Origin: Chloroflexota bacterium
Lineage (GTDB): Bacteria > Chloroflexota > Dehalococcoidia > Bin125
Length of the DNA: 64,000 nucleotides
Reading direction: 5' to 3'
Assembly (NCBI GenBank): GCA_028873865.1
Contig: JAPPNI010000030.1
Coordinates: 85,268 to 149,267, forward strand
The first letter of the stretch is position 1. Each line of letters starts with the position of its first letter. The notes beneath the pieces are model-generated. The model had not been told where the DNA came from and made no database searches. It saw only the letters and a program-made list of their open reading frames with translations. Both the position numbers and the translations under genes were made by a program. Positions 2,385-59,543 of the stretch are shown in pieces.

Positions 2385-3176
2385 ATGGGTGCACACGCCA
2401 CTCCCACCGCCGCCTACTGGGCGTTCTTCGAGAACTTCAACGCCAAAGATCCCGTCGGCTGGGCCGGCGCGATGTCGTACCCGCATGTGCGGGTCTCCGC
2501 CAGGCAACAGCCGAGCCGCGGTGACGGTCCCAGCCCGCGTACCGCCTCAGGCATCTATCCAACCGCCGATGACTACGCTTCGATGGCCGGGCAAGCCGGC
2601 TGGGAGCGGTTCGAGGTCACCGGCTGGGTACGAACGCAGGGCGTCACGCCGCGAGTCGTGGCGTCTTCCGAGTCGAAGATGCACCTGTCCGGCGGCTGGA
2701 CCCGGCACCGAACCGACGACTCCGAGATCGTCACCAACCGCGTGCTGTACGTCCTCAGCCGAATAGAGCAGGGTTGGGGCATCCAGGCGCGCTTCGGCGT
2801 CGACGGTTGGTCGCGCAACGACGCCCGGGAGGCGGAATCCCAGGCGGCGCTCGCCGCGCTCGGACGCCTCATGACCACGCTCGAAGCCGGAGACGTCGAG
2901 CCCTGGCTCAACTGCTTTCACTATCCCCTCACCCTGGTCGGCGGACCGGGCGCCGTCGACACCATGGACGACGCCGGAGCCATGCGTGACGCCTTCGGAG
3001 ACTGGGCCGGCGAAGCCTTGCCGATCAACTACACGGCCGACGTGATCGCCGCCGGCGGGAATGGCGTCACGCTTTCCCAATCGATCACCCGCGGCGAGAA
3101 CTCATTCCACCAGTCCTTCCTCGTCGCCGAGCGTGACGGCGAATGGAAGATCCTCGCGGTCTCCGCCATCACGTAA
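2385..3176 (+). CDS. NTF2/SnoaL-like double-domain hypothetical protein (paralogue 1)
   Basis: Two NTF2-like halves with motifs GWAG, TGWVR, GGWTR and GWGIQA; paralogous to the next gene. Confidence 0.6.
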   Translation: MGAHATPTAAYWAFFENFNAKDPVGWAGAMSYPHVRVSARQQPSRGDGPSPRTASGIYPTADDYASMAGQAGWERFEVTGWVRTQGVTPRVVASSESKMHLSGGWTRHRTDDSEIVTNRVLYVLSRIEQGWGIQARFGVDGWSRNDAREAESQAALAALGRLMTTLEAGDVEPWLNCFHYPLTLVGGPGAVDTMDDAGAMRDAFGDWAGEALPINYTADVIAAGGNGVTLSQSITRGENSFHQSFLVAERDGEWKILAVSAIT

Positions 3177-41869: not shown

Positions 41870-44203
41870 TCAGCGCGGACTGATCGGCTGTGGAGGCGGC
41901 TCGCCAGCTGACTGCCTCGCTGTTAACCCCGCCACGATGCCGCTCTCGATCAACTCCTCGATCGCCGAGTCATCGAGGCACAACACCTCGTTGAGAATCT
42001 CGACCGTGTGCTCGCCCATCCGAGGCGCCGGTCGCAGACATGATGCGGGCCGCCGGCGCAGCCGCCAGGGGAATCCCTGATATTGACGAGTACCGCTATC
42101 GGGATGCGTCAGATACAGCCACCAATCCCGAGCCGCCAGGTGCGGATCCCGTAGATGGGTCAGGGTCGAATGGACAGCCGCCGCCGGCACACCGACCGCC
42201 TGCAGGCGGTGCTGCAGCGTCAGCGCGTTCCAGCTGCGAGTCCACTCGCTCAGGGCAGACTCCAACGCAACCTCATCGGCTTTGCGACCCCTCGCCGTCC
42301 GCCACTCGGGACGATCGATCCCGGCAACCTCTGCAAGCCGCAGCCAGGTTTCGTCGCCTCGAACCGAAATCGCGATCCACTCGTCGTTACCGTCGACGCC
42401 ATCGGCGCAGCGGAAGCACTCGTGTGGCGCCGCGTCTGGTATCCGATTCCCATCACGCGCCGGCATCTCCTGCCCCGCCGAGGCGGCCAGAAGATATTCG
42501 TCGATGTATGCGACCGCGGACTCAAACATCGAACCTTCGACATGTACGGCCGCGCGTCCCCGCTGCGCCTGCCACGCCGCCGCCAGGGCCGAGGCCGCCA
42601 TCTGCGCGCCGACGATCGGGTCGGCCTGCATCGTGCCCAGCATCACCGGCTTGTCGCCCCGGTAGCCAAGTAACAGATCCCAGCCCGCGTTGCCCTCGGT
42701 CGTGCCGCCGTTGGCGCGGAAGTTGTCGTATGGACCGCCGGTGCCGAAACCGGAGAAGGAGACCAGTGCGATATGCGGATTGACCTCGCGCATGTGCTCG
42801 TGGGTCAGCCGCAGGTTTTGCAGCACGCGCGGACGAAAGTTCTCCAGCACCACGTCAGCGCGAGCGATCAAATCGAGCGCCAACTTGCGTCCCTTGTCCG
42901 TATCGAGGGCAATCGAGATCGTTCGCTTGCCCCGATTGGCCATGTTGAAGTTGGGCCGCACATTCAGGGGATGCGCATCCGGTGAAGCGACCCGCATCGG
43001 ACCGCTCGCCTCGTAGCGCCAGAGATCAGGGCGCTTCGGCCCCTCCACCTTGATCACCTCTGCGCCCAGATCGCTGAGAAGTCCCGACGCGTACGGTCCC
43101 AGCCATGCATGGGTGAAGTCGACCACGCGCAAACCATCGAGCGGTCCCGTCGAACGTTCAGGTTGCCGCCGCTGCGCGAATCGGTCCGTGCGCTCCGCCT
43201 GCCCCTCAACTTCCGTGACACGCATCGCTCGGCCGGCTCCGGTGAGACCGTTGTTGTCGCGAAAGAAATCAATCGCCTTGAGCTGCGGATCCTCTAGCAG
43301 TTGCTGCGCCGAGCGGTGCATCGCCATCACCGAGCCCAGCTCCGACAGCTTCGCCCAGATCGTCGCCGCATCCAGCGACTCGACGATTGGCCGCACATAC
43401 TCCAGCGACGGTTCTCGTTCGGCAAAGCGTCCTTCACCTTCCAGCAGTTCACTTGGAGGTGGATCACAGCCGAAGGCGATCGGCGCATTGCGAAGCGTCT
43501 CCCTCGACCAGGGCGAGAGCGTGATGTAGCCGTCGGCCGTCTCCATCACCTCAGCCCAGCCTGGCGTCCCTCCGACTCGTAGCAGCGCCTCGCCCGAGAA
43601 CTCCGAACGCAGCGACATGATCAGGGTTGAGACAGCCTCGTGCGACGACAGCTCAATCCACTCGCCCCGGCCTGAGTGCAGACGCTCGAGCAGCGCCGCA
43701 AACGCCGCCACGGCGCCCAGGATGCCAATCGCCCGAGGAATGATCGCCGCTGGAGCGGCCAGCGGCTCCTGCGGCGCGACGCCATTCGTCCCGGCAAAGC
43801 CCGACAACGCCTGGATGATCAGGTCGTCGGACAAGTAGTCGGAGTACGGACCGTCGGTCCCAAACGGCGACGAGTGGACGACAATCAACTCCGGGAACTC
43901 GCCAGCGATGCCGTTCAGTTCCGCAAGCGGCGCGTCCGTCACGAACACATCCGCAGCGGAGAGCTTGGCGCGCCAGTCGCCCGATCCAGGTGACTTGCCG
44001 ACCATCAGCGACTCACGCAGCAACGAAACAGTCTCGCCGTCTCGTTCGATCGTCGGCGCGGCAACCTTCAAGCGCGAATCTTCGGCTTCGAAGACCGAGA
44101 CCCGCGCTCCCCAGCGCGCGAACTCAAGCGCGCATGCCGCCGCAGGTACGTCACGGCTGTACTCGACGACGCGGATGCCGCTCAGCAGATTGCCGTCCGA
44201 CAC
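41870..44203 (-). CDS. family III CoA-transferase (CaiB/BaiF), single-chain tandem fusion of two CoA-transferase domains
   Basis: Two consecutive CoA_transf_3 N-termini (GIRVVEYSRDVPAAACALEFARWGARV and LDGLRVVDFTHAWLGPYASGLLSDLGAEVIKVE); 777 aa against ~400 for a single domain. Confidence 0.8.
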   Translation of the reverse strand: MSDGNLLSGIRVVEYSRDVPAAACALEFARWGARVSVFEAEDSRLKVAAPTIERDGETVSLLRESLMVGKSPGSGDWRAKLSAADVFVTDAPLAELNGIAGEFPELIVVHSSPFGTDGPYSDYLSDDLIIQALSGFAGTNGVAPQEPLAAPAAIIPRAIGILGAVAAFAALLERLHSGRGEWIELSSHEAVSTLIMSLRSEFSGEALLRVGGTPGWAEVMETADGYITLSPWSRETLRNAPIAFGCDPPPSELLEGEGRFAEREPSLEYVRPIVESLDAATIWAKLSELGSVMAMHRSAQQLLEDPQLKAIDFFRDNNGLTGAGRAMRVTEVEGQAERTDRFAQRRQPERSTGPLDGLRVVDFTHAWLGPYASGLLSDLGAEVIKVEGPKRPDLWRYEASGPMRVASPDAHPLNVRPNFNMANRGKRTISIALDTDKGRKLALDLIARADVVLENFRPRVLQNLRLTHEHMREVNPHIALVSFSGFGTGGPYDNFRANGGTTEGNAGWDLLLGYRGDKPVMLGTMQADPIVGAQMAASALAAAWQAQRGRAAVHVEGSMFESAVAYIDEYLLAASAGQEMPARDGNRIPDAAPHECFRCADGVDGNDEWIAISVRGDETWLRLAEVAGIDRPEWRTARGRKADEVALESALSEWTRSWNALTLQHRLQAVGVPAAAVHSTLTHLRDPHLAARDWWLYLTHPDSGTRQYQGFPWRLRRRPASCLRPAPRMGEHTVEILNEVLCLDDSAIEELIESGIVAGLTARQSAGEPPPQPISPR

Positions 44204-45894: not shown

Positions 45895-45973
45895 TCCTTG
45901 CCGCTGAACTCAGTACCCATCAGGCGCGCATCGGACTAAACGCTACTCTCTTGTCAGGTTGAGAGGTGCGGGA

Positions 45974-47032
45974 ATGGCCTTTGAGTACACCGGCGTCGAT
46001 TTGCCGATTCGGGAGAAGACGATCGCCTCCCAACGCATGAGCTGGGAGATGATCGCCAATCCCGGCCGCTGGTGGACCGGCGCGGAACGCGTCGAGATCG
46101 CGAGAATCGGACGTGCGGCGCGAGACTTCGAGGCAGTCGGTAGCGAGATCCTGCCCGAGGCCGCCGTCTACTCAATCCAGAAGCTGGTCGTTGACAACGC
46201 CAACCTCAACCGCGAGTGGTACGACGAGATCATGGCGTCCGAAGGCATAACCGAGGACCGGTACGTCGAGCTGGTCGCGGTGGTCGTCCACTCGTTCTCG
46301 ATCGACGAGTTCCATCGCGCCCTCGGCCTCGCCCTCGAACCACTGCCCGACCCCGTGAGTGGCGAACCCACGCGACAACGACCGGCTCAGGCCGAGCAGC
46401 GCTACTCCTGGCCGCCGATCGTCCCCAAGGCTGGACTCAACCCCGGCGACGAGATGCTCTATGGACCAATGGAGTGGGGCGCCAACGTCATCTCTGCGCT
46501 CTCCCTGATTCCCGAGAACGTGCGCTGGCTGCACGATCTCTCTGAGGGCCACTACCTCTCCTTCGCCGAAATGCGCCAGCCCGACCCGCTGCGGGCCATC
46601 TCTCGCTCGCAGATCGAGCTGATCGCGGCCCGAGTCTCGGCGCTCAACGAATGCTTCTATTGAACCGCCTCCCACGTGCGCATGCTCCGTGAGAGCAGCC
46701 AACGCAGCGGAACCATCGACAATCTCAACCTCCAGGGCACGGTCAATCCCGACGCCGACAGCGGCGTCCCCCAGGGCAGCCTGCTGACCGCCTTCGCCGA
46801 GGCCGCCGTTCGCCAGACCGACGCTCTGCCCGGCCTGCGCGATCAGATCGTCTCGGAGCTCGGCGTACAAGAGCTCGTTGACGCCGCCGGCGTCGTGGCC
46901 AACTTCCAGCGCATGGTTCGGATCGCCGATGGCTGCGGCATCCCGCTCGACGAATTCACCAAAGACGCAACCGACGATGTCCGCGACGAACTTGGTATCC
47001 ACGAGTACGCGTCGGCCGCCAATACGGCATAG
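45974..47032 (+). CDS. AhpD/CMD-family putative selenoprotein (copy 1): ORFs 45959..46663 and 46676..47032 are in one frame, joined by UGA 46661-46663 read as selenocysteine (NECFY-U-TASH)
   Basis: Both ORFs are in the same frame. A single TGA sits exactly where the second Cys of the CMD/AhpD motif N-x-C-x-Y-C-x-x-x-H belongs. A paralogue shows the identical arrangement, and a hairpin follows 19 nt downstream. Confidence 0.55.
46683..46697 (+). other. SECIS-like hairpin (UGCUC-CGUGA-GAGCA) 19 nt after the UGA of copy 1
   Basis: Folded by eye; the GU-containing apical loop matches the bacterial SECIS pattern. Confidence 0.3.
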
Positions 47033-47047
47033 AGCTCGGAGTTCGCC

Positions 47048-48142
47048 ATGACTACGACGACTGCCTCGTTCGCGTACACCAGCACCACTTGGCCTGTGCT
47101 CGATCGAATGGCCGCAGCGCACCGGCGCAGTTGGAAGATGCTGGCCGCGCCCGGAGAGTGGTGGACCGGCGCCGAGCGGATCAGTATCGCTGCCGAATGC
47201 CGACGCGCCTCGGCGCGGGTGGATGGCCTGCCCGATCCCGGACCTGGACCGGCCGAACTGCCCGAGGCCGCCGTGTTCGCCATCCACAAGCTGATCGGCG
47301 ACCTACCCAACGTCACCCGCGACTGGTACGACGAGACCATCAGCGCCGAGGGCATGTCCGACGCGCACTACATCGAGTTGCTGGGCGTCGTCGTGCACAT
47401 CTGGTCGGTCGACGAATTTCATCGAGCGCTGGACATCGACCTGGAACCGCTCCCTGAGCCGCTCGCGGGTGAACCGACGCAGATTCGTCCCACAGGGGCA
47501 AAGGCGCACGGCAGTTGGCCGCCGACGGTCTGGCCGGACGACCTGGATGAACGGGACGCGGACATCTACGGCGGCGCCGATCGCGCTGCCAACGTCCGCG
47601 CCGCGATGAGTCTGCATCCCGACAGCGTCCGTTGGCTCACCGATCTGTTCGACGCGCACTATCTGAGCTGGATCGAGATCCAGGCGGTGCAGGAGCCGTT
47701 CCGCGTCCTCACCCGCCCCCAACGCGAGCTGGTCGCGGCCCGCGTGTCGGCGCTCAACGAGTGCTTCTATTGAACGATCTCCCACGTGATGCTGCTCGGT
47801 CGGAGCAGCGAAGGCAACGACGCGCTGAACCTCAACGGAACGGTGCGCAATGAAGTCGACAGTGGAGTCGAGCACGGAGAAATCCTGTTGCGCTACTCCG
47901 ACGCGGCAGTCGGCCGAACTCCGGATCTCAGGGCCGCGCGTGACGCGCTCGACATCGCCATGGGACCCGACGCCGTCGTCGATTGCGCCGCAACCATCGC
48001 CAACTTCCAGAGAATGGTGAGAATCGCCGACGGCTGCGGCATCCCCCTGGACCCGTTCTCCAGAGAGGAATCCGCGAAGTGGCGAGACGGCCTCGGGATC
48101 GACGATTTCCGCAGCCGAGGGAACACCTTCGACGAGAACTGA
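47048..48142 (+). CDS. AhpD/CMD-family putative selenoprotein (copy 2): ORFs 47048..47773 and 47786..48142 are in one frame, joined by UGA 47771-47773 (NECFY-U-TISH)
   Basis: Same architecture as copy 1 with conserved context around the UGA, followed by a 7-bp-stem hairpin. Confidence 0.55.
47791..47809 (+). other. SECIS-like hairpin (GCUGCUC-GGUCG-GAGCAGC) 17 nt after the UGA of copy 2
   Basis: Perfect 7-bp stem with apical loop GGUCG; the position relative to UGA fits a bacterial SECIS. Confidence 0.4.
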
Positions 48143-48149
48143 GCGAGCG

Positions 48150-48638
48150 TTACTCGATCGTCCGCAGCAACCGCGCGATCTCAATCGCCGCCTGCGCCGC
48201 CTCTTCGCCCTTGTTGCCCGCCGAACCGCCTGCCCGCGCCATCGCCAGGGCGACGGTCTGCGTCGCCAGCACCTCGAAGATCACGGGCACTCCGGTATCA
48301 AGGCCTACCCGCGCGATCCCCTGCGTCGCGCCGTCGACGACCAGTCGGTAGTGGTCTGTTTCCCCCAGGATCACCGCACCCAGGCAGATCACGGCGTCGA
48401 AGCGCCCGGTGCGGGCGCATTTCTGCGCCGCGATCGGGATCTCGAATGCGCCCGGGACCCAGTAGATGTCGATCTCGTCCGTGTCGGCCCCGTTCTCCTC
48501 GAGGTGATCGATGCAGCCATCGAGCAGCTTGCTCGTCACGAAGTCGTTGAACTTGCTCACCACCACGGCAAAGCGCAGACCGCTGGCTGGACCATGCTCG
48601 GGGTCGGGATTCGCGGCGCCGTCGTGGACTCTTGGCAT
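48150..48638 (-). CDS. ribH: 6,7-dimethyl-8-ribityllumazine synthase
   Basis: LRFAVVVSKFNDFVTSKLLDGCIDHLEENG...DIYWVPGAFEIP matches the RibH family. Confidence 0.9.
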   Translation of the reverse strand: MPRVHDGAANPDPEHGPASGLRFAVVVSKFNDFVTSKLLDGCIDHLEENGADTDEIDIYWVPGAFEIPIAAQKCARTGRFDAVICLGAVILGETDHYRLVVDGATQGIARVGLDTGVPVIFEVLATQTVALAMARAGGSAGNKGEEAAQAAIEIARLLRTIE

Positions 48639-48655
48639 GGTCGTCGGCTCGCGAC

Positions 48656-50026
48656 CTAGCCGATGGCCGCTCGGCGCGTGGGCGGATGCCCATCGTCGCC
48701 CGGATCGGTTGCCGCGATGTCGTCGCTGTCGAGCAGATGTCCCATCTTCTCCTGCTTGACCGACAGGTAGCGGACGTTGTGCGGATTCGCTGAGGCGATC
48801 ACCGGCACCCGCTCGACAACTTCCAACCCATAACCGGCCAGACCGTGACGCTTGGCCGGATTGTTGGTCATCAGTCGGATCCGGTGCACTCCGAGGTCGC
48901 GCAGAATCTGCATGCCGATTCCGTAGTCGCGGCGATCGGCCGAGAAGCCCAGCGCGAGGTTGGCCTCCACCGTGTCCATGCCCTGATCCTGCAAGGCATA
49001 GGCGGCGATCTTGTTGTGCAGACCGATCCCGCGGCCCTCCTGCGCCATGTAGACGATGACCCCCCGTCGTTCCTCGGCGACGCGGCGCATGGCGAGCTCA
49101 AGCTGTTCTCCGCAATCGCAGCGCTGCGAGGAAAAAACGTCGCCGGTCAAACACTGGGAGTGGACCCGGACCAGCGTGGGCTCACCGCCGTCGACATGCC
49201 CCATCACCAACGCCACGTGCTCCTCGGAGTGGTCTCGCGTGCGATAGCCGAGCAGCCGCCAGGTACCCATCGGGGTCGGTAGCTTCGCCTCCGAGACCCG
49301 CTCGACGAGCTGCTCCGTGCGTAGTCGGTACTGAATGATCTGTTCGACCGAGACGATCTTGATCTTGTGTCGCCGAGCGAAGCGCACCAACTCGGGCAAG
49401 CGCGCCATGTCGCCGTTGCGCTTCATGATCTCGCAGATCACCGCCCCCGGCTGCAGACCGGCCAATCGGCACAGGTCAACCGACGCCTCCGTCTGACCGG
49501 CCCGAACCAGGACCCCGCCCTCGCGCGCCCTGAGCGGGAACATGTGCCCCGGACGCACCAGGTCCTCTGGCGTGGAATTCGGATCCATGAGCACCTGAAC
49601 CGTCCGCGCCCGGTCCGGCGCCGAAATCCCCGTCGTTACGCCCGAACGCGCCTCGACCGAGACCGTAAAGGCCGTTCCCAGCGGAGCGGTATTGGAGTCG
49701 TGCTCAACCATCAGGCGCAGGCCCAGTCGGTCGAGAATGTTCCCGTCCATCGCTACGCAGATCAGGCCGCGCCCGTGAGTAGCCATGAAATTGATCGTGT
49801 CCGAGGTCACGAACTGCGCCGGCAGCGCCAGGTCGCCTTCGTTCTCCCGGTCCTCGTCGTCCGTGATGATTAGCGGCTCACCCTGGGCGAACGCCTCGAT
49901 CGCTTCCTCGACCGTGCAGAATGGCGATTTCCGTCGGCCGCTGCTGGCTCGGCGCGCGCGCCGTGGTTTCTTCGCTTCGCTGTTGGTCGAAGAATCGGTT
50001 GCCGGGGAAGTCTCGGCGTCGGTCAT
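48656..50026 (-). CDS. ribBA: bifunctional 3,4-dihydroxy-2-butanone-4-phosphate synthase / GTP cyclohydrolase II with a basic N-terminal extension
   Basis: DHBP synthase domain (DDEDRENEGDL) and GCH-II domain (C-x2-C-x-C zinc site CLTGDVFSSQRCDCG). Confidence 0.9.
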   Translation of the reverse strand: MTDAETSPATDSSTNSEAKKPRRARRASSGRRKSPFCTVEEAIEAFAQGEPLIITDDEDRENEGDLALPAQFVTSDTINFMATHGRGLICVAMDGNILDRLGLRLMVEHDSNTAPLGTAFTVSVEARSGVTTGISAPDRARTVQVLMDPNSTPEDLVRPGHMFPLRAREGGVLVRAGQTEASVDLCRLAGLQPGAVICEIMKRNGDMARLPELVRFARRHKIKIVSVEQIIQYRLRTEQLVERVSEAKLPTPMGTWRLLGYRTRDHSEEHVALVMGHVDGGEPTLVRVHSQCLTGDVFSSQRCDCGEQLELAMRRVAEERRGVIVYMAQEGRGIGLHNKIAAYALQDQGMDTVEANLALGFSADRRDYGIGMQILRDLGVHRIRLMTNNPAKRHGLAGYGLEVVERVPVIASANPHNVRYLSVKQEKMGHLLDSDDIAATDPGDDGHPPTRRAAIG

Positions 50027-50661
50027 TGCGCTTCGCCTCCAGGGGTCTGGCGTGCGCCAAGCCGCTCGTCGAGAAGCTGCTCGATCTTCGTCTCAAGCAG
50101 CTCGTCAACGTAGCGCGCCAGGATGTCCGTCTCGAGATTCACTGCGTCACCCGGTTGTTTGTCGAGGAGATTCGTGTGTTCCTGAGTGTACTGAACCAGT
50201 GACACAGCGAATCCAGCGTCATCCTTGTCAATGATCGTCAGCGAGACGCCGTCGATGCACACCGGTCCTTTGACGATCATGTGGCGAAGCAGGTCGGACG
50301 GCGCGTCATAGGTCACCACGATCGCGTCGGACTCGGGTCGGGTGTCTCTCAGAGCGCCGCGTCCCTCAACCACCCCGCGCACGAGGTGGCCGGATAACCG
50401 GTCCATGGGCCGCACCGATCGCTCCAGGTTCACCCGGTCGCCGACCTTGAGTTCGCCAAGATTGGATCGGCGATAGGTTTCCGGCATCAGGTTGGCGAGA
50501 AACTGGCCGGACTCGATATGGGTCACGGTCAGATCGACGCCATTGATCGCGATGCTGTCGCCCAGGTTGGCGTCTTCGAGGATCATCGGCGCGGAGATCC
50601 GCAGCAGCCCCTCGGCGGCTTCAGTGATCCCCCCGACCTCTTCGATGATGCCCGTGAACAT
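50023..50661 (-). CDS. ribE: riboflavin synthase
   Basis: MFTGIIEEVG N-terminus and two lumazine-binding repeats; 4-nt overlap with ribBA. Confidence 0.9.
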   Translation of the reverse strand: MFTGIIEEVGGITEAAEGLLRISAPMILEDANLGDSIAINGVDLTVTHIESGQFLANLMPETYRRSNLGELKVGDRVNLERSVRPMDRLSGHLVRGVVEGRGALRDTRPESDAIVVTYDAPSDLLRHMIVKGPVCIDGVSLTIIDKDDAGFAVSLVQYTQEHTNLLDKQPGDAVNLETDILARYVDELLETKIEQLLDERLGARQTPGGEAQ

Positions 50662-50802
50662 TCGCGCTGCCTCCCGGGTGAGCCTCCGTCGCGCTCAATG
50701 CTAACCCGGACACGCGCCCACAAACACATAACGGGCCGCAGCCGGCCAACCGCAGCGCCTCGGACTGTGGAACAAATGCTACGGATGAAGAGTCCGACGA
50801 TA

Positions 50803-52458
50803 CTAATGCAACCGCTTGATCAACACGTCAGATCCACTGGCATCTCGCCGATAGTAGCGATACCCCGCCGATTTGTACTGTTCTTCGCTCAGCCCCGAGA
50901 CAGTCTGAACAGTTAAGCACAACCAGCGAATCTCGCGCCCGCCCGCCGAAGCTTCGCACGAGTCGCGCAACCGCTCGGCGACACTGCCCGGCGCATCCGG
51001 TCGGGCAGCAAGGCAGCGAATCATTGCTCGTCCGTCGTCGCCGAACTCCACGGCCGCAACACCGAGGATGTCCTCCTGCTCCTGTCTGCCATTGCCATCC
51101 TCGACTCGTGGTGTCTGGACGGAAGCCAGCCAGACGACTGCGTCGCCTGCCAGTGCCTGAGCCAACAACTCGTCACATGTCGGCGCGAGGCCGGCGACCT
51201 GCGCAGCCAGTAGTTGGTCCACGGCGTCGGCGTCCGCCTGCCCGGCGGGACGTATCCGGACATCCAGTTCTCGCTCGGGATCGCTGGGATAGCCGCTGAT
51301 CAGCAAGTCGGCGCCAAGCCGCTCAACGGTCATGTGGTTCAGGCGCAACACATCACGCATCCGTTTGGCGCCCTGTCCGCGTACGGCGGCCTGTGCATCC
51401 CCGCCGATGATCATCGGCGCCACCACTGCCGTCACCTTGTTGACCAGACGCTGGTCAAAAAAAGAACCCAGCACGTCGCCCCCACCCTCGACCAGCAGAC
51501 CGACCACCCCGCGCTCCTGGCCCAGCAGATCGAGGAGCGCCGGCAGTGACACTCGTCCGTTCTCGTCGGCCGGCAGCACAGCCACATCGATCTTTCGGGA
51601 GGCCATCGCCTCACGCCACTCCGCGCTCGCGGACACGGTGGCGATCAGCGTCGGCGATGACGAAACGTCCTCAAGCACTCTGCTGTCAAGCGGCGTCCGG
51701 CCACGACTGTCGACCACCACGCGCAAGGGCTGCGGCACCGGACCGTTCCAGCGCTCCGGACGAGCGGTCAGCTGCGGATCGTCAACGATGATCGTCTCCA
51801 CCCCGACCAGCATGGCGTCGAACAGTGGCCGGTTCTGGTGCGCCCACTGGAGCGTCTGCGGCCCCGAGATCCAGCGCGAGTCGCCGCTCGTCGAGGCGAT
51901 CCGGCCGTCCAGCGACGCGGCGAACTTCGCCGTCACAAACGGCCGCCCGGTTCGCCGGTGATGCGCGTAGGCTTCGTAGTGGGCTGCCCCTTCGGCGGCC
52001 CCATCGCCGAGGTTGACCTCGATGCCCGCCTCGCGAAGCTGCGCCAGCCCGCGACCGGAGACTCGAGGATCGGGGTCGCCAACGGCGACGACCACGCGCG
52101 CCACCCCCGCCTTGATGATCGCCTCCGTACAGGGCGGCGTCCGCCCGAAGTGAGCGCACGGTTCAAGGGTGACGTACATCGTCGAGCCCCGAGCGAGGTC
52201 GCCTGCCTGCCGCAGAGCCATCACCTCCGCATGCGGACCGCCCGAGCGCTTGTCGGACCCCGATTGGTGCGGGCGGCCGTGTCGCGAGGACGGATCGGAA
52301 CTCCCCGGAGGCTGCGTCGCACCCTCGCCCACGACTCGCGAACCGCGGGCGACGACCGCGCCCACAGCGGGATTGGGGCTCGTCGTACCGCGCACGGCGC
52401 GGGCCAGCTCGAATGCCCGCAACATCAGGCGTGAGCTGCCGGCCGAGCGCGCGCTCAT
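50803..52458 (-). CDS. ribD: riboflavin biosynthesis deaminase/reductase RibD fused to a C-terminal GNAT-like domain (likely start at MLRAFELA, 52425)
   Basis: CDA zinc motif HAEV...PCAHFGRTPPC, a RibD_C reductase domain, and ~150 extra C-terminal residues with an acetyltransferase-like LSEEQYKSAGYRYYRRD. Confidence 0.8.
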   Translation of the reverse strand: MSARSAGSSRLMLRAFELARAVRGTTSPNPAVGAVVARGSRVVGEGATQPPGSSDPSSRHGRPHQSGSDKRSGGPHAEVMALRQAGDLARGSTMYVTLEPCAHFGRTPPCTEAIIKAGVARVVVAVGDPDPRVSGRGLAQLREAGIEVNLGDGAAEGAAHYEAYAHHRRTGRPFVTAKFAASLDGRIASTSGDSRWISGPQTLQWAHQNRPLFDAMLVGVETIIVDDPQLTARPERWNGPVPQPLRVVVDSRGRTPLDSRVLEDVSSSPTLIATVSASAEWREAMASRKIDVAVLPADENGRVSLPALLDLLGQERGVVGLLVEGGGDVLGSFFDQRLVNKVTAVVAPMIIGGDAQAAVRGQGAKRMRDVLRLNHMTVERLGADLLISGYPSDPERELDVRIRPAGQADADAVDQLLAAQVAGLAPTCDELLAQALAGDAVVWLASVQTPRVEDGNGRQEQEDILGVAAVEFGDDGRAMIRCLAARPDAPGSVAERLRDSCEASAGGREIRWLCLTVQTVSGLSEEQYKSAGYRYYRRDASGSDVLIKRLH

Positions 52459-53620
52459 GCTCGTCGGCGGCGATCGACAATCGTGAGCACCAGCCAGAAC
52501 ACGGCGGAGCTGATCGCAATGGCGGCGAGCACGATCTGGACGGGCAGTTCCCAGGACGGATCCCTGGCCAGCTGAACCGTCGATGAGCGGGGCCGCTGCT
52601 CCAGCGGCCAGTCGGACTCGCCCCGCGCCACCGAGGTCGCGACGGAACGCGTCTCCGTGTCTTCAGCCAGCGCCCGGTCGTCGTCCGAGGATCTTCCCGC
52701 CTGCGCTTCGACCGCGCTCGATCGACTCCCGGAGTCCTGCGCCACCGTCGCATCGGCTGCCTGCTCTTGCGCGTCGTCTTCCCGGCTCGCGGCAGCGGCT
52801 ACAGCCTCTTCCGCCTCTTCCTCCTGTGCAACGACATCCTCCACATTGACGCTCTTGGATTCGCCGGTCCCGCTGCTGCGACCAGCGGTCAAGGCCCGGC
52901 GCGATGGGTCTGCCGCAGACTCGTCAACTACCGCCTCTTCAACCTCTTGCTGCGCCTGTTCCTCCTGGTATGCCTCAGCCTGCTGTTCGGCCTGTTCCTG
53001 TTCGATCGCCTCCTCAGCGGCCTCTTCCTCGTCCTCTACGGACGCCACTGCCGCGACCGCGACCTGTTCGTCGTCCTGCTGCGCCTCGTCCGCCAGGGCG
53101 GCGACGGTCTCAGACTCACCCGACGCCGGCGAAGCAGCCTCATCAGCCGCCTCCCGAGCCTGCGTCTGCACCTCGACCGCCTGGGTCACGACCGACGCCG
53201 TCGGAACCAGGGTCGCCTGCGCATCAGCCGATGTCGTCGTGAAGTTAACCGTTGGGGAATCGACCGCGTCGAAAACCATCACCGCGGCGAACGTCGCGAC
53301 GCCGACCGCCGCAGTGGACATCGATAGTCGCAGGGCCCGAGTCGTGCTCGCCGGTTGTACCGATATCTGCGTGGTGTCGTTGAGCATCTCAGTCGTGAGC
53401 TGGAATGGAACCTCGCCTGGCGCTGCCTCGAAGCTGCGCAGCACCGAGCGCATACGCTGCAGGTCGGCCAGGTACTCCTGCATCTCGACCGACTCGGCCA
53501 GCCTCGACTCCACCCGCGCTCGATCTCGAGGCGAAAGTTCCCCATCCATGTACGCCGAGATGTCCTCGCGCCAGTCGACGCGGTGCGGCAACAGCGAGGA
53601 GATCAATCGCCACGTCATCT
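52455..53620 (-). CDS. putative anti-sigma factor (N-terminal anti-sigma domain, TM helix, long acidic Ala/Glu/Gln-rich extracytoplasmic tail, C-terminal hydrophobic helix)
   Basis: ISAYMDGELSPRDRARVESRL anti-sigma N-domain signature; lies directly downstream of the ECF sigma gene. Start set at MTWRLISS; the ORF extends to 53774. Confidence 0.6.
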
Positions 53621-53830
53621 CACACCGACCCCGGAATCCACCTCTACGCCGACAACGGCCAGCTGCTGGGTACGTCCCTCGTCTACAAATGTAGACGCTC
53701 CTCCGGGCGAAATAGTTCCACAACTGGCCTCGGTCATCGACAGTGGACCGGTGTCGCCGGCAACATAACGACACGGATCACCGCGCCGGCGACAAAGCCC
53801 GCACCCCCTCGGCCCTCAACGCCCCAACCG

Positions 53831-54559
53831 CTAACCATCGGCATCGGACAACTCCTTCGACTGCCGCTCGTTGAGGAAATCCCTCATCGCCGAGCGTCCG
53901 CGGCTGATACGTGATTTCACCGTGCCCATCGACCAGCCGGTGGCATCCACAATCTCGCGATACTCCATGTCGGCGACGTCCCGGTAGAAGACCGCGCGTC
54001 GCTGCTCTTCCGGCAGGGACTCCAACGCCTCTCGCAGCGTTCCGCTCAGTTCGATGTTGAGCAGGTGCTCGTCCAGGGAACGCTCGCCCGACTCCGGCGC
54101 AAACTGGTCGCCAAGCGAATCGGTCAGTCGGTCGAGCGACGTCGTCGGTCGCCGCTGCCGCTGGCGCAGATGGTCGAAGCACGTGCGCCGCGCGATCACT
54201 CCCAGCCAGGCCGGGAACTTACCCCGCTGCTTGTACGTGTTCAGCCGGTCCCACGCCTTGATGAACGACTCCTGCATCAGGTCGTCGGCGTCGGCCATCC
54301 CAACGATCCCGCGGCAGGTCGCGCGCACGCGCGTTTGATGACGCAGCACCAGAATGTTGAACGCGTCGAGCCGCCCGTCCAGCGAGACGGCGACCAACTG
54401 GTCGTCATCCAGGACATCGAGATCCGGTTGACCGCCCGGACGGTTCACCAAAGCGCTCCCCTGCTGTCGCCCGCTCGCCGGAAACCTCCGGCCGCGTCCG
54501 AGCGGGCGGAGCCTGTGGGACACTGCGTCCATGCCGCTCGTCGATCCAGGCCCAATCAT
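53831..54559 (-). CDS. ECF (sigma-70 family group IV) RNA polymerase sigma factor; real start probably internal (GTG near 54448 or ATG 54532)
   Basis: Region 2 (DDQLVAVSLDGRLDAFNILVLRHQTRV; FIKAWDRLNTY) and region 4 (YREIVDATGWSMGTVKSRISRGRSAM). Confidence 0.8.
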   Translation of the reverse strand: MIGPGSTSGMDAVSHRLRPLGRGRRFPASGRQQGSALVNRPGGQPDLDVLDDDQLVAVSLDGRLDAFNILVLRHQTRVRATCRGIVGMADADDLMQESFIKAWDRLNTYKQRGKFPAWLGVIARRTCFDHLRQRQRRPTTSLDRLTDSLGDQFAPESGERSLDEHLLNIELSGTLREALESLPEEQRRAVFYRDVADMEYREIVDATGWSMGTVKSRISRGRSAMRDFLNERQSKELSDADG

Positions 54560-55364
54560 CGCACAAGCTCATCAGAGCGGTCGCGCAGTCATCGGCGCAA
54601 ACGTGTCCACCATCCAGATGGTCCGCGCCGTGGTGCAAGCCGCCGAGACCGCGCAACGACCGGTCCTGATCCAGTTCAATCGATCAGGCCTTGGCCTGAT
54701 CGGCGGAGTCGATGTCGCCGCCCTCATGGTCAAATCGATCGCGGACGAGTCGGATGCGCAGATCGCGTTGCACCTCGATCACGCCGATACGCTTGACGAG
54801 CTCACAGCCGCGATCAACGCCGGATTCGGCTCCGTCATGATCGACGGGTCCACTCTTCCCTTTGAACAACACCTGACCCTGGCCCAGTCGGCAAAGGGCC
54901 TGACGACCTGGTCCCGGTTGCCGTTGGAGGCAGAGCTGGGACACGTCGCCGGAGACGAGGCCGGCGTCACGATCGGCGAGGCGTCCTGGACCGACCCCGA
55001 TCAGGCAGCCCGCTTCGTTGACGCCACCGGTGTCGATTGGCTGGCCGTCGCCGTCGGCAACACCCACGGAGGCTCCGCCATCGGGGGACTACAGGCCGAA
55101 CGCCTCCAGGCGATCCGCGACGCCGTGTCTGTGCCCCTGGTGCTGCACGGCGCGAGCGGGCTGACCGACGATGAGTTGGCAACGGCGGTCGAGTTGGGTG
55201 TCGCCAAGATCAATGTCGGCACCGCCCTCCACCAGGCCGCAGCGCAAGGTATGGCCGATTGGCTGGAAGACCGCCCGCAAGACCTGCGTGGAGCGCTCGC
55301 TGCCGCCGAGGAGCGAGTCGCCGAATCCGCGCAATCGTTGCTCACTGCGGCGTGGGCGCTGTAG
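54531..55364 (+). CDS. class II fructose-bisphosphate / tagatose-bisphosphate aldolase family protein
   Basis: MPLV N-terminus, AVIGANVST..., LHLDHA and metal-binding His residues of class II aldolases. Confidence 0.8.
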   Translation: MPLVDPGPIIAQAHQSGRAVIGANVSTIQMVRAVVQAAETAQRPVLIQFNRSGLGLIGGVDVAALMVKSIADESDAQIALHLDHADTLDELTAAINAGFGSVMIDGSTLPFEQHLTLAQSAKGLTTWSRLPLEAELGHVAGDEAGVTIGEASWTDPDQAARFVDATGVDWLAVAVGNTHGGSAIGGLQAERLQAIRDAVSVPLVLHGASGLTDDELATAVELGVAKINVGTALHQAAAQGMADWLEDRPQDLRGALAAAEERVAESAQSLLTAAWAL

Positions 55365-55439
55365 GACCGGGCGCACCGCCAACTTCGCTACGATCCGCCA
55401 CACGAGGCCCCGAGCGGGGACACGCGGAGGATACGAGCC

Positions 55440-57824
55440 ATGCTCAGCGATTATCGAATTCTCGATCTGACGGACGATCGCGGCCTGATCGGCGGAATGA
55501 TCCTGGCCGACCTCGGCGCCGATGTGATCGCGATCGAGCCTCCCGGCGGCAATGCCGCCCGCCAACGCGGCCCCTTCGCCGACGGCTCCAACCAGGGCGG
55601 TATCGAAGACTCCCTGACCTGGCAGTCCTACGCCCGAGGCAAGCGCTCGGTCGTCCTGGATCTGGAGTCCGACGACGGTCGCGCACAGTTCATTGAGCTC
55701 GCGCGCTCGGCCGACGCGGTCATCGAGTCGGCCGACGTCGGCGGCATGGATTCTCTCGGCCTCGGCTATGAGACGCTCTCTTCCGTCAACCCTGGCCTGG
55801 TCTACGTCGCCATCACCCCCTTTGGCTCCACCGGACCCAAGGCCGGCTGGGCCGCGACCGACATCACCGTCGCCGCCGCAGCCGGACCGATGATCCAGAG
55901 CGGCGACAAAGACCGACCGCCGCTCCGAGTCGGATTGCCGCAGACCGCCCTACACGCCGGCGCGGAGGCGGCGCTGGCCGTCCTCATGGCCCTGCACGAG
56001 CGCCAGCGTTCCGGACGTGGACAGTTCGTCGATGTCTCCGCCCAGGCCGCCTACGCCCAGGCGACGCAGTCCGGAATCGTTGCCGCTGCCAACAACTCCG
56101 GCCAGTTCACACGCTCAGCCGTCGGCGCAGCCCTCGGCCCACTTGAGATCCGGCTCTTCTGGCCCTGCAAGGATGGCCACGTCGCGATCACATATCTGTT
56201 TGGCGCGGCGATCGGCCCCTTCACCGACCGACTCATGCAGTACGCCCTCGAGGAGGGCTACTGCGACCAGGCCACCCGCGACAAGGACTGGCTCAACTAC
56301 ACCAACCTCATCCTCAGCGGACAGGAACCGATCAGCGAGTACCTCCGCTGCTGTGACGTGATCGGCGCGCTCTGCGCCGACAAGACCAAGGCCGAGCTGT
56401 TCCAGGTCGCGCAGGAGCGTCGCCTCCTCCTGGTCCCGGTTTCAACGATGGACGACCTCGATGAAAACGAGCACCTCGCCGCCCGCTCCTACTGGCGCGC
56501 AGTCGAGCGCGACGGTCAGACGGTTAAGTTTCCAGGACCGTTCGCCCGTCTCTCCGAGACGCCGATCCAGTACGGCCGCTCCGCGCCGATGCTCGGCGAA
56601 CACACCGATGAAGTCCTCGCCGAAACGCGTCCCGCAGCGAGTCTGCACGCCGCCAACGGCTCCGGCGACTCGGCGCCGACCGCCCCACCCCTCTCCGACC
56701 TCAACATGCTTGACCTGATGTGGGTCATGGCCGGACCGGCTGGGACGCGAGCGCTCTGCGACTTCGGCGTCAACACGGTGCGAATCGAATCCAGCACCCG
56801 GATCGACACCGCCCGCACCCTGCAGCCGTTCATCGACGACGAAGCCACCCAACCCGAGGGCTCGTCGATGTTCCACAACATGAACGCCGGCAAACGCATG
56901 ATCACCGTCGACCCGGCCAACCCCGAAGGCCGCAAACTGATCCTCGACCTCGTCCGCTGGGCCGACATCGTGACCGAGTCCTTCACGCCCCGCGCCATGC
57001 GCGGCTGGGATCTGACCTGGGACACCATCCACGAGGTCAACCCGCGCGCGATCATGATGTCCTCCTGCCTCATGGGACAGGATGGCCCCCTGGCCGAGTT
57101 CGCGGGCTTCGGTAATCTCGCCGCCGCCTTCGCCGGCTTCACCCCGCTCTGCGGCTGGCCCGACCGCTCGCCTGCCGGACCCTTCGGCGCATACACCGAC
57201 TACGTCGCCCCGCGCTTCGCCTCCGCCGCCCTCTTGGCCGCCCTCGACGAGCGCGACCGCACCGGACAAGGCCAGTACATCGACATCTCGCAGATGGAAG
57301 CCGCCATCCACTTCCTCACCCCAGCCTTCCTCCAGTACCGCCTCACCGGCGAGAAGTGGCTCGCCGACGGCAACAACGACCCCGACATGTCCCCCCACGG
57401 CGTCTTCCCCTCCCAGGGCGAAGATCAATGGGTCGCCATCGCCTGCCGAGACGACGCCGACCGCGCCGCCCTGGAATCCGTGCTCAACGGCCAGTCGTTG
57501 GAAGAATGGACCGCCGCCCGCTCGAACGAGGAAGCCATGAACGCGCTCCAGGCCGTCGGCGTGCCCGCCCACGCCGTCCAGGACTCCGCCGCCTGCTTCG
57601 CCGACCCCCAGCTCCAGCACCGCAACCACTTCGTCCAGCTCGCCCATCCGACGCAAGGACAGTCGGTCGTCGAGGGAGCCAGGATCGTCTTCGGCCGTAC
57701 CCCCGCCGGCCGACCCCAGGTCGCCCCGACCATGGGCGCCGACAACGACACCGTCCTCCGTGACCTCCTCGGCTACACCGACGAGCAGGTCATCGAGCTG
57801 GTAGCGTCTGGCGCGTTGCAGTAA
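55440..57824 (+). CDS. family III CoA-transferase (CaiB/BaiF), single-chain tandem fusion of two domains; paralogue of 41870..44203
   Basis: MLSDYRILDLTDDRGLIGGMILADLGADVIAIE and a second LNMLDLMWVMAGPAGTRALCDFGVNTVRIE CoA_transf_3 start; 794 aa. Confidence 0.8.
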   Translation: MLSDYRILDLTDDRGLIGGMILADLGADVIAIEPPGGNAARQRGPFADGSNQGGIEDSLTWQSYARGKRSVVLDLESDDGRAQFIELARSADAVIESADVGGMDSLGLGYETLSSVNPGLVYVAITPFGSTGPKAGWAATDITVAAAAGPMIQSGDKDRPPLRVGLPQTALHAGAEAALAVLMALHERQRSGRGQFVDVSAQAAYAQATQSGIVAAANNSGQFTRSAVGAALGPLEIRLFWPCKDGHVAITYLFGAAIGPFTDRLMQYALEEGYCDQATRDKDWLNYTNLILSGQEPISEYLRCCDVIGALCADKTKAELFQVAQERRLLLVPVSTMDDLDENEHLAARSYWRAVERDGQTVKFPGPFARLSETPIQYGRSAPMLGEHTDEVLAETRPAASLHAANGSGDSAPTAPPLSDLNMLDLMWVMAGPAGTRALCDFGVNTVRIESSTRIDTARTLQPFIDDEATQPEGSSMFHNMNAGKRMITVDPANPEGRKLILDLVRWADIVTESFTPRAMRGWDLTWDTIHEVNPRAIMMSSCLMGQDGPLAEFAGFGNLAAAFAGFTPLCGWPDRSPAGPFGAYTDYVAPRFASAALLAALDERDRTGQGQYIDISQMEAAIHFLTPAFLQYRLTGEKWLADGNNDPDMSPHGVFPSQGEDQWVAIACRDDADRAALESVLNGQSLEEWTAARSNEEAMNALQAVGVPAHAVQDSAACFADPQLQHRNHFVQLAHPTQGQSVVEGARIVFGRTPAGRPQVAPTMGADNDTVLRDLLGYTDEQVIELVASGALQ

Positions 57825-59380: not shown

Positions 59381-59457
59381 AACTGGCTGTGGGTCCTTAG
59401 CTCAGTTGGCCAGAGCAGCGGACTTTTAATCCGAAGGTCCTGGGTTCGAGTCCCAGA
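59381..59457 (+). tRNA. tRNA-Lys (anticodon UUU), genome-encoded CCA
   Basis: Folded by hand: 7-bp acceptor stem GGGTCCT/AGGACCC, D arm GCTC/GAGC, anticodon loop CTTTTAA, T arm CTGGG-TTCGAGT-CCCAG, discriminator A then CCA. Confidence 0.85.
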
Positions 59458-59543
59458 GGACCCACCACGTTCACCCAGGCCCAGACGATTCGGCGCGGTT
59501 AGGGCAGGGTCGTATGCTTGGCCGTCCGAACGTGAGAATCTAG

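Follow-up and report, generated by a model that had tools for sequence, protein, structure and literature searches.

A riboflavin gene cluster without an FMN riboswitch adjoins an ECF sigma/anti-sigma gene pair in an uncultured Dehalococcoidia bacterium

A stretch of DNA of 64 kb from an uncultured Dehalococcoidia bacterium (Chloroflexota), hereafter the window, contains the riboflavin biosynthesis (rib) genes ribD, ribE, ribBA and ribH directly behind the genes of an extracytoplasmic function (ECF) sigma factor and an anti-sigma factor. The question that this locus raises is how the rib genes are expressed there, given that a flavin mononucleotide (FMN) riboswitch was not found. As the best explanation, which is considered fairly probable, it is proposed that a riboswitch-free rib cluster of Dehalococcoidia became fused to the 3′ end of the ECF sigma/anti-sigma module and that ribD is transcribed together with the anti-sigma gene. 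The genes concerned are listed below, and all positions of features are window coordinates.

53831–54448, minus strand: ECF (group IV) sigma factor gene, 205 amino acids from the probable GTG start at 54448; Pfam Sigma70_r2 and Sigma70_r4_2
52455–53618, minus strand: anti-sigma factor gene, 387 amino acids; Pfam zf-HC2, 28 bits (cut-off 22)
52455–52458, minus strand: ATGA overlap of the anti-sigma stop codon and the ribD start codon, found in the window and in the six close relatives
50803–52458, minus strand: ribD, 551 amino acids; Pfam dCMP_cyt_deam_1 and RibD_C, TIGR00326 at 318 bits
50023–50661, minus strand: ribE, riboflavin synthase with two lumazine-binding repeats; Pfam Lum_binding, 140 bits
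48656–50026, minus strand: ribBA, 3,4-dihydroxy-2-butanone 4-phosphate (DHBP) synthase/GTP cyclohydrolase II; Pfam DHBP_synthase and GTP_cyclohydro2
48150–48638, minus strand: ribH, lumazine synthase, the last gene of the unit; the genes downstream are convergent

The assignments with Pfam and NCBIfam gave the minus-strand order ECF sigma, anti-sigma, ribD, ribE, ribBA, ribH, and the gene order and coordinates given in a preliminary description of this DNA were right. The loci closest to the window belong to Dehalococcoidia metagenome-assembled genomes, and the RibD protein of the window is identical to MDE2967859.1. Two sets of related loci were compared with the window, namely six close relatives (L001–L006), with a RibD identity to the window of 70–80%, and five more distant relatives (L007, L009, L086, L087 and L088), with an identity of 54–67%. 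The ribBA and ribE genes share a 4 nt overlap. The ribH product is 94–98% identical to that of the ribH open reading frame (ORF) of the close relatives, and the orthologous ORF in L086–L088 was attributed to Pfam DMRL_synthase.

The link between the two parts of the locus is the junction of the anti-sigma gene and ribD. The anti-sigma stop codon (52455–52457) and the ribD ATG (52456–52458) share the tetranucleotide ATGA, as the preliminary description had stated, and the same arrangement was found in all six close relatives. Five terminator-like hairpins were reported in the region 47800–54800, none of them between the ECF promoter motif described below and ribD, and a consensus scan revealed no sigma-70-like promoter in that interval. 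The last 200 nt of the anti-sigma gene showed conservation of the coding type only; they encode a DWPLEQRP block, the second membrane helix and the sequence DRRRR. Because neither a terminator nor a promoter-like block lies between them, and because of the ATGA overlap and the coding-type conservation, the straightforward reading is that ribD is co-transcribed with the anti-sigma gene and translationally coupled to it via ATGA.

At the gathering score, the Rfam search of the window revealed no FMN riboswitch (RFN element), and a permissive cmscan (E ≤ 10) of the region 47000–56000 revealed none either. Thus the RF00050 search that the preliminary description had suggested bore out its view that the rib operon, the ribD–ribE spacer included, is without an RFN element. 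A hidden or divergent FMN riboswitch was considered as well, and the same permissive search over 9 kb gave nothing relevant. As positive controls, two other Dehalococcoidia/Chloroflexi loci, L008 and L010, gave RF00050 matches of 86 and 94 bits directly 5′ of ribD, so the absence from the window is real and lineage-specific. The riboswitch was also absent from 14 related loci (given as L001–L007, L009 and L081–L088). Chloroflexi normally have ribDEBA under FMN control, and Mycobacteriaceae, Cyanobacteria and Bacteroidaceae are entirely without FMN riboswitches (PMC3766115); the loss is therefore unusual for the phylum and not for bacteria.

The promoter that could serve the anti-sigma–ribD unit was sought next to the sigma gene. 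ECF promoters of the RpoE/SigW type are characterised by AAC in the −35 box and CGT in the −10 box. The preliminary description had assumed such a promoter 5′ of the sigma gene. The motif was found instead in the gap of 212 nt that separates the sigma gene from the anti-sigma gene, where it is overlapped by a palindrome read from the sequence:

53693–53719, minus strand: ECF-type promoter motif GGAAC-N17-CGTCT, −35 GGAAC at 53719–53715 and −10 CGTCT at 53697–53693
53680–53697, minus strand: perfect 8-2-8 palindrome CGTCTACAttTGTAGACG, overlapping the −10 box

There is one match to GGAAC-N17-CGTCT in the window, with 0.7 expected by chance, and the case for a promoter therefore rests on conservation. 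Among the close relatives neither the GGAAC nor the CGTCT(A)AATTTG block varies, the distance between them is 17 nt in every case, and the flanking sequence varies freely. In the distant relatives, where the sigma and anti-sigma genes abut or overlap, GGAAC-N17-CGTC lies directly before the anti-sigma start, inside the last codons of the sigma gene. GGAAC-N17-CGTC(T) is thus present in the window and in 11 related loci, each time just 5′ of the anti-sigma gene; the same-strand background of the motif in the related loci is about 1 per 100 kb. This pattern of conservation allows us to conclude that the lineage has a conserved putative promoter of the ECF type, which would drive the anti-sigma gene and whatever follows it. 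In the window and the close relatives no conserved ECF motif lies 5′ of the sigma gene, and relaxing the search pattern revealed none either; the sigma gene appears to be expressed separately from the anti-sigma gene. Positive autoregulation by the same promoter 5′ of the sigma gene, which is typical but not strictly defining, was not seen. Of the seven loci, four have the right arm of the palindrome, TAGAC, unchanged; L001 differs from it by one base, and in L005 and L006 the arm has decayed. CGTCTACAttTGTAGACG could serve as an operator, or it could have arisen by chance as an extension of the −10 box. In L009 a second GGAAC-N17-CGTC was found (2471–2497, plus strand) about 150 nt 5′ of a SIMPL/DUF541 gene that follows the anti-sigma gene, which points to SIMPL as an ancestral member of the regulon of this sigma factor.

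The sigma protein contains regions 2 and 4 only within about 200 amino acids, which places it in the ECF (group IV) class, and it matched NCBIfam TIGR02937 with 87 bits (cut-off 43), which assigns it to the ECF superfamily; its nearest solved relatives are RpoE of E. coli, SigH and SigE of M. tuberculosis and SigW of B. subtilis. The ORF probably starts at GTG 54448 and not at the listed ATG 54559, since a GGGGAG ribosome-binding site and the N-termini of the relatives point to the former. As listed, up to ATG 54559, it would overlap a class II aldolase gene that is divergent from the sigma gene. In the 82-nt divergent intergenic region between these two genes, an alignment of the window and the close relatives revealed a near-invariant block of 13–14 nt, CTGTGGGACACTG (plus strand, about 54512–54527), just 5′ of the aldolase start at 54531, and the remainder of the region was variable. 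The block may combine a ribosome-binding site with a regulatory site.

The adjacent gene encodes the cognate anti-sigma factor with an N-terminal anti-sigma domain (zf-HC2), and tblastn matches of the relatives begin at its ATG at 53618. The would-be zinc ligands HxxxCxxC are replaced by H-x3-W-x2-D, and a zinc-binding anti-sigma (ZAS) type is therefore not supported. According to hydropathy and composition, the N-terminal domain is followed by a first membrane helix (98–120), an acidic low-complexity loop (121–345), the DWPLEQRP block, a second membrane helix (358–382) and a DRRRRA end, and the C-terminal block is conserved across the relatives. What had been described as a long acidic Ala/Glu/Gln tail is actually this loop between two predicted membrane helices; it has 225 residues (22% Ala, 16% Glu, 11% Ser, 9% Gln and 8% Asp) with a net charge of −42, and the predicted topology would make it extracytoplasmic.

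From these features we infer the following mode of expression. The sigma gene would be expressed from a separate promoter, and free sigma factor would transcribe the anti-sigma gene and ribD as one mRNA from GGAAC-N17-CGTCT, with ribD translation coupled to that of the anti-sigma factor via ATGA. In this scheme the anti-sigma gene and not the sigma gene is under sigma control, so the loop would provide negative feedback only. Such a loop would settle at a non-zero basal activity that keeps the essential ribD expressed, and the activity would rise when the membrane anti-sigma factor is inactivated by an extracytoplasmic signal. The genes ribE, ribBA and ribH would receive read-through and probably have, in addition, a housekeeping-type promoter of their own (GnTAnnAT). 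The C-terminal domain of RibD, described next, would act in this subclade as a binding or regulatory module and not as an enzyme.

The RibD protein consists of a deaminase domain (about residues 9–151), a reductase domain (173–386) and a GNAT-fold domain (393–551), and the parts of interest map as follows:

52240–52302, minus strand: 21-residue insertion S53–G73 of RibD, between TQPPG and GPHAEV
50806–51282, minus strand: C-terminal GNAT-fold domain with a degenerate motif A, recognised by AlphaFold 2 and Foldseek; it has no Pfam match of its own

The score with TIGR00326, the equivalog model of bacterial RibD, was 318 bits (cut-off 156). B. subtilis RibG (2b3z) aligns over its full length with residues 12–392, with the zinc ligands HAE and PC...PPC (PCx8PPC) retained, and the deaminase and reductase domains look intact. 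The preliminary description had correctly given a length of 551 amino acids with extra residues at the C-terminus; relative to RibG there are about 160 of them, where about 150 had been estimated. The insertion before HAEV, estimated at about 30 residues, measures 21. About one quarter of 120 homologues have 14–28 residues at this site instead of 3, with the core DPxSxFGRP, and the insertion is missing in close relatives such as P0011. By these length differences it is taken to be a variable surface loop.

Residues 393–551 gave no Pfam match at E ≤ 10, but they are conserved in more than 100 RibD proteins of 510–590 amino acids, and fusion proteins that are about 50% identical match the Pfam GNAT families PF00583, PF13508 and PF13673. 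An AlphaFold 2 model of the domain, built from an alignment of 21 sequences, had a predicted local distance difference test score (pLDDT) of 89 and a predicted template modelling score (pTM) of 0.85. A Foldseek comparison of the model with the PDB gave 265 matches at E ≤ 1e-3; the 50 listed were all GNATs, with template modelling scores mostly of 0.57–0.70. The confident model and these matches make the assignment of a GNAT fold sound. The profile of the domain reached only E = 3e-4 against GNATs of the PDB.

The resemblance to an N-acetyltransferase that had been noted for the RibD C-terminus holds for the fold and not for the signature of the enzymes. The pyrophosphate loop of motif A, Q/R-x-x-G-x-G/A, is replaced in the window by D-A-P-G-S-V-A with a deletion of one residue. 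The subgroup of the window, which includes the protein of L086, has D-A-P-x-x-x-A, in which both the R/Q and the G are lost, whereas eight distant fusion proteins retain W-R/Q-x-x-G-L-A at this position. A Pfam GNAT match was obtained for none of the 13 sampled members of the window's subclade, as opposed to all eight in the distant subgroup. Other blocks of the domain, namely RL..xEASAxGR, a motif B-like Y-K-x-x-G-Y and GYRYYRR, are still conserved, so the domain is under selection. Since the signature of the acetyl-CoA pyrophosphate loop is lost, it is more likely that in this subclade the domain is a binding or regulatory (pseudo-enzyme) module than an active acetyltransferase.

The opposite view, that the domain is a working acetyltransferase whose altered loop still binds acyl-CoA, is regarded as somewhat doubtful. 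Such an enzyme could be RibT-like and act on the RibH/RibE complex, or it could serve damage control by N-acetylating a reactive aminopyrimidine intermediate. In its favour, the GNAT fold is complete and confidently modelled, the three blocks named above are conserved across the whole fusion family, the fusions of about 50% identity keep Q/R-x-x-G-x-A together with their Pfam GNAT matches, the nearest non-fused relatives resemble RimI-type protein acetyltransferases, and RibT provides a precedent (PMC9048828). The loss of motif A is, moreover, suggestive only, and an acetyltransferase activity could persist because CoA is bound largely by backbone amides. Against it stand the replaced R/Q and G of motif A with the one-residue deletion, the failure of every Pfam GNAT model on the 13 subclade members and the lack of a clear specific similarity to RibT. 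The profile of the domain aligned with B. subtilis RibT (5xxr) with E = 0.2 over 43 residues, RibT was not among the top 50 structural matches, and an orthology of the domain to RibT is unsupported.

A profile search of 1.84 billion representative proteins gave seven matches at E ≤ 1e-20, followed by a sharp drop in score to generic RimI-like GNATs. One of the seven was a RibD fusion of full length. Three were scanned, of which two proved to be RibD fragments, and within this scope no clear stand-alone orthologue of the fused domain was found. A metagenome scan with the C-terminal profile revealed five loci, two of them duplicates of L003. In a full-text literature search no description of a RibD–GNAT fusion was found.

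The origin of the anti-sigma/ribD junction was considered by comparison with the distant relatives. In L007, L009, L087 and L088 the sigma gene is divergent from the aldolase gene and is followed by the genes for the anti-sigma factor, (SIMPL/DUF541), (an HD-domain protein), dcd, ribD, ribE, ribBA and ribH. In L086 a gene for a protein of 1199 amino acids lies on the opposite strand between the anti-sigma gene and ribD. The SIMPL and dcd genes are absent from the window and from the close relatives, relocated copies included. By gene order, the sigma/anti-sigma pair is an old neighbour of the rib cluster. Because the distant relatives hold SIMPL, HD-domain and dcd genes or an opposite-strand gene in between, the direct anti-sigma/ribD fusion looks like the result of a clade-specific deletion of the intervening genes together with the old rib promoter.

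The region between ribD and ribE bears on this history, as does a short element found both there and in the sigma/anti-sigma gap:

50662–50802, minus strand: ribD–ribE spacer of 141 nt, containing the second GTTATGT and the −10-like box GTTAGCAT
53763–53769, minus strand: GTTATGT copy 1, (c)GTTATGT, about 45 nt 5′ of the −35 box
50726–50732, minus strand: GTTATGT copy 2, in the ribD–ribE spacer

The spacer is 104–141 nt long in the window and the close relatives and 0–49 nt in the distant ones. Its alignment revealed an invariant TTATG followed, after 22–23 nt, by G.TA..AT; in the window the latter is the box GTTAGCAT (50698–50705, minus strand) of the pattern GnTAnnAT, a pattern that has the shape of the extended −10 box of high-GC bacteria. 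Similar boxes, GGTAGAAT in L087 and GGTACGAT in L007, were found in the gap 5′ of dcd–ribD, which is where the ancestral rib promoter should be. The conserved box suggests that in this clade ribE–ribBA–ribH probably have their own promoter besides read-through. A new spacer promoter before ribE fits the deletion history, and it makes it less likely that all of the pathway depends on the ECF promoter. The earlier proposal of read-through along the operon from an ECF sigma-dependent promoter is thus retained in part. A conserved promoter of the ECF type and the anti-sigma/ribD coupling agree with it; the promoter had been misplaced, and ribE–ribBA–ribH probably have one of their own. Where ribD ends and the spacer begins (50760–50815, minus strand, in the window; 7642–7700 in L001), the sequence resembles a short tandem duplication, in which (T)CAT.(C)GTAGC occurs twice, about 25 nt apart, and the first copy contains the real stop codon.

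Several points weigh against a role of the ECF module in riboflavin supply. The fusion is apparently a deletion product, and the link may be neutral rather than adaptive; the rib operon of L086 clearly works without any link to the anti-sigma gene; what identifies the promoters is the conservation of their motifs only; and if ribE–ribBA–ribH have their own promoter, the ECF input would reach only ribD, which is not the flux-controlling step. In addition, the GTTATGT sites 5′ of both sub-units could belong to a different regulator.

These points lead to the reading that the genes were merely juxtaposed by the deletion, with the rib genes on housekeeping promoters and the ECF sigma factor without a physiological role in riboflavin supply. 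The ribD promoter would then lie 5′ of the ECF motif or inside the anti-sigma gene, and ribE–ribBA–ribH would use the spacer promoter. The one to three genes or the opposite-strand gene that separate the two parts in the distant relatives speak for this, as do the conserved GnTAnnAT of the spacer and the similar boxes 5′ of dcd–ribD, and the conserved GTTATGT(T) 5′ of the ECF motif could act as a −10-like element. Riboflavin synthesis is, moreover, essential, and its dependence on a stress sigma factor would be risky. Juxtaposition is nevertheless held to be unlikely. All seven genomes, at 70–80% RibD identity, have retained the ATGA overlap, no promoter-like block was found in the 3′ region of the anti-sigma gene, and any transcript that starts at the ECF motif must enter ribD because no terminator separates them. 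Transcription of ribD with the anti-sigma gene is therefore preferred over juxtaposition.

Just two copies of the element GTTATGT exist in the window, and both are on the coding strand of this operon. Both sites are present in L001–L005, with no others within about 13 kb, L006 has the spacer copy only, and the element is absent from the distant relatives. The conservation around it ends beyond about 8 nt, and it lies within neither a covarying RNA structure, nor a conserved small ORF, nor a consistent terminator. It could be a binding site for a regulator. Other explanations were tried and rejected. Leader peptides that begin with the ATG of TTATG would have no conserved reading frame, and in L003 and L006 a stop codon follows at once. 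TTATG was also considered as the U-tract of intrinsic terminators; the window has two weak hairpins, but in the relatives hairpins do not regularly lie next to it. A generic housekeeping −10 box does not agree with only two copies in 64 kb and with the spacer copy being without the final T of TAnnnT. Apart from GTTATGT, a reverse-strand GGAAC in the spacer was considered; it is found only in the window and L001 and has no CGTC at 17 nt. The modelling of conserved RNA structure with RNAalifold gave no base pairs in the sigma/anti-sigma gap and one weak stem of seven pairs (−2 kcal/mol) with almost no covariation in the spacer.

Two further proposals go beyond the co-transcription of ribD with the anti-sigma gene. 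According to the first, which is quite improbable, a protein circuit took over from the lost riboswitch: the acidic loop of the anti-sigma factor would sense an envelope, redox, metal or flavin-related signal and set the expression of ribD and, by read-through, of the pathway, with the degenerate GNAT domain adding post-translational and the GTTATGT sites transcriptional feedback. If true, this would be a dedicated switch from stress to vitamin B2 supply of a kind not described before. The least probable proposal is that a new cis-regulatory RNA in the gap or the spacer, with the GTTATGT sites as part of it, replaces the FMN riboswitch. In its favour, GTTATGT is confined to the two sites in five of the six close relatives, invariably on the coding strand, and both sites lie in transcribed or near-transcribed leaders. 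The RNAalifold results and the end of conservation at about 8 nt speak against it, and the gap copy, which is 5′ of the predicted ECF promoter, may lie outside the transcript of that promoter.

A comparison with known systems indicated that each part of the locus is of a known kind: the ECF module, the rib operon without a riboswitch, and a GNAT tied to riboflavin genes. It is their combination and its particulars that are new: a putative promoter before the anti-sigma gene only, the ATGA coupling of the anti-sigma gene and ribD, and RibD fused to a degenerate GNAT. As in the RpoE–RseA, SigW–RsiW and SigE/SigH modules, a two-domain sigma factor (regions 2 and 4) is followed by the gene of a single-pass-like anti-sigma factor, and the promoter has the AAC/CGT boxes. 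In contrast to them, the motif precedes the anti-sigma gene and not the sigma gene, so that no positive autoregulation is visible, the anti-sigma factor is predicted to have two membrane helices around the acidic loop of 225 residues and is without HxxxCxxC, and a vitamin biosynthesis gene appears to be translationally coupled to the anti-sigma gene.

A parallel for the regulation is C. glutamicum, where the ECF factor SigH raises the expression of ribH, ribA and ribC (PMC4510997). There, as proposed here, an ECF sigma factor acts on rib genes, and the rib operon is without an FMN riboswitch (PMC4510997). In C. glutamicum the rib genes are distant members of the regulon within def2–fmt–fmu–rpe–ribGACH, whereas here ribD is predicted to belong to the transcription unit of the anti-sigma gene itself. 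The sigma factor of the window is not necessarily an orthologue of SigH, and its predicted membrane-bound anti-sigma factor differs from the cytoplasmic zinc (ZAS) protein of C. glutamicum. With the riboswitch-controlled ribDE(BA)H operons of Chloroflexi and Firmicutes (PMC3766115) the cluster shares the same four genes in the same order; L008 and L010 keep the riboswitch, whereas the window has no RFN element.

The rib operon of B. subtilis encodes the GNAT RibT, which acetylates RibH and binds both RibH and RibE (PMC9048828). The C-terminal domain of RibD, likewise of the GNAT fold and genetically tied to riboflavin genes, may be analogous to RibT. RibT is, however, a separate CoA-binding protein of 124 amino acids encoded at the end of the rib operon (PMC9048828; PDB 5xxr), whereas here the GNAT is fused to RibD and motif A is lost. 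The fusion nevertheless represents a second, independent genetic link between GNATs and riboflavin after RibT of Bacillus, and it could help to explain such GNATs; it occurs in well over 100 database entries, annotated simply as RibD where they are named. In plants and bacteria, a COG3236 N-glycosidase is also fused to RibD at the C-terminus; the accessory domain is in the same place and has a different fold.

Rib operons are the textbook case of riboswitch control, and this lineage has dropped the riboswitch and shows a conserved alternative wiring. The locus offers a testable example of an essential cofactor pathway that may have been captured by a stress-sigma module, as well as a candidate example of an ECF loop in which only the anti-sigma gene is under sigma control. 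It does not overturn current understanding, and its physiological importance is unproven.

Several further features were noted in the window outside the sigma–rib region. Two genes, at 41870–44203 (minus strand; 777 amino acids) and 55440–57824 (plus strand; 794 amino acids), each encode two CoA-transferase family III repeats and lie amid enoyl-CoA hydratase-like and alpha/beta-hydrolase genes. A tRNA gene at 59391–59464 (plus strand; RF00005, 72 bits) was the sole Rfam match in the window at the gathering score. Convergent with ribH are two tandem paralogous genes (45959–47032 and 47048–48142, plus strand), each interrupted by an in-frame TGA, at 46661–46663 and 47771–47773, respectively, within N-E-C-F-Y-[TGA]-T-x-S-H. 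When the first of them was joined with Cys at the TGA, it matched NF041238, "AhpD_rel_CFYUT alkylhydroperoxidase-related (seleno)protein", with 355 bits (cut-off 175), and by this match the pair probably encodes two selenocysteine-containing AhpD-like proteins. Stem-loops located 17–20 nt 3′ of each in-frame TGA could be selenocysteine insertion sequence (SECIS) elements.

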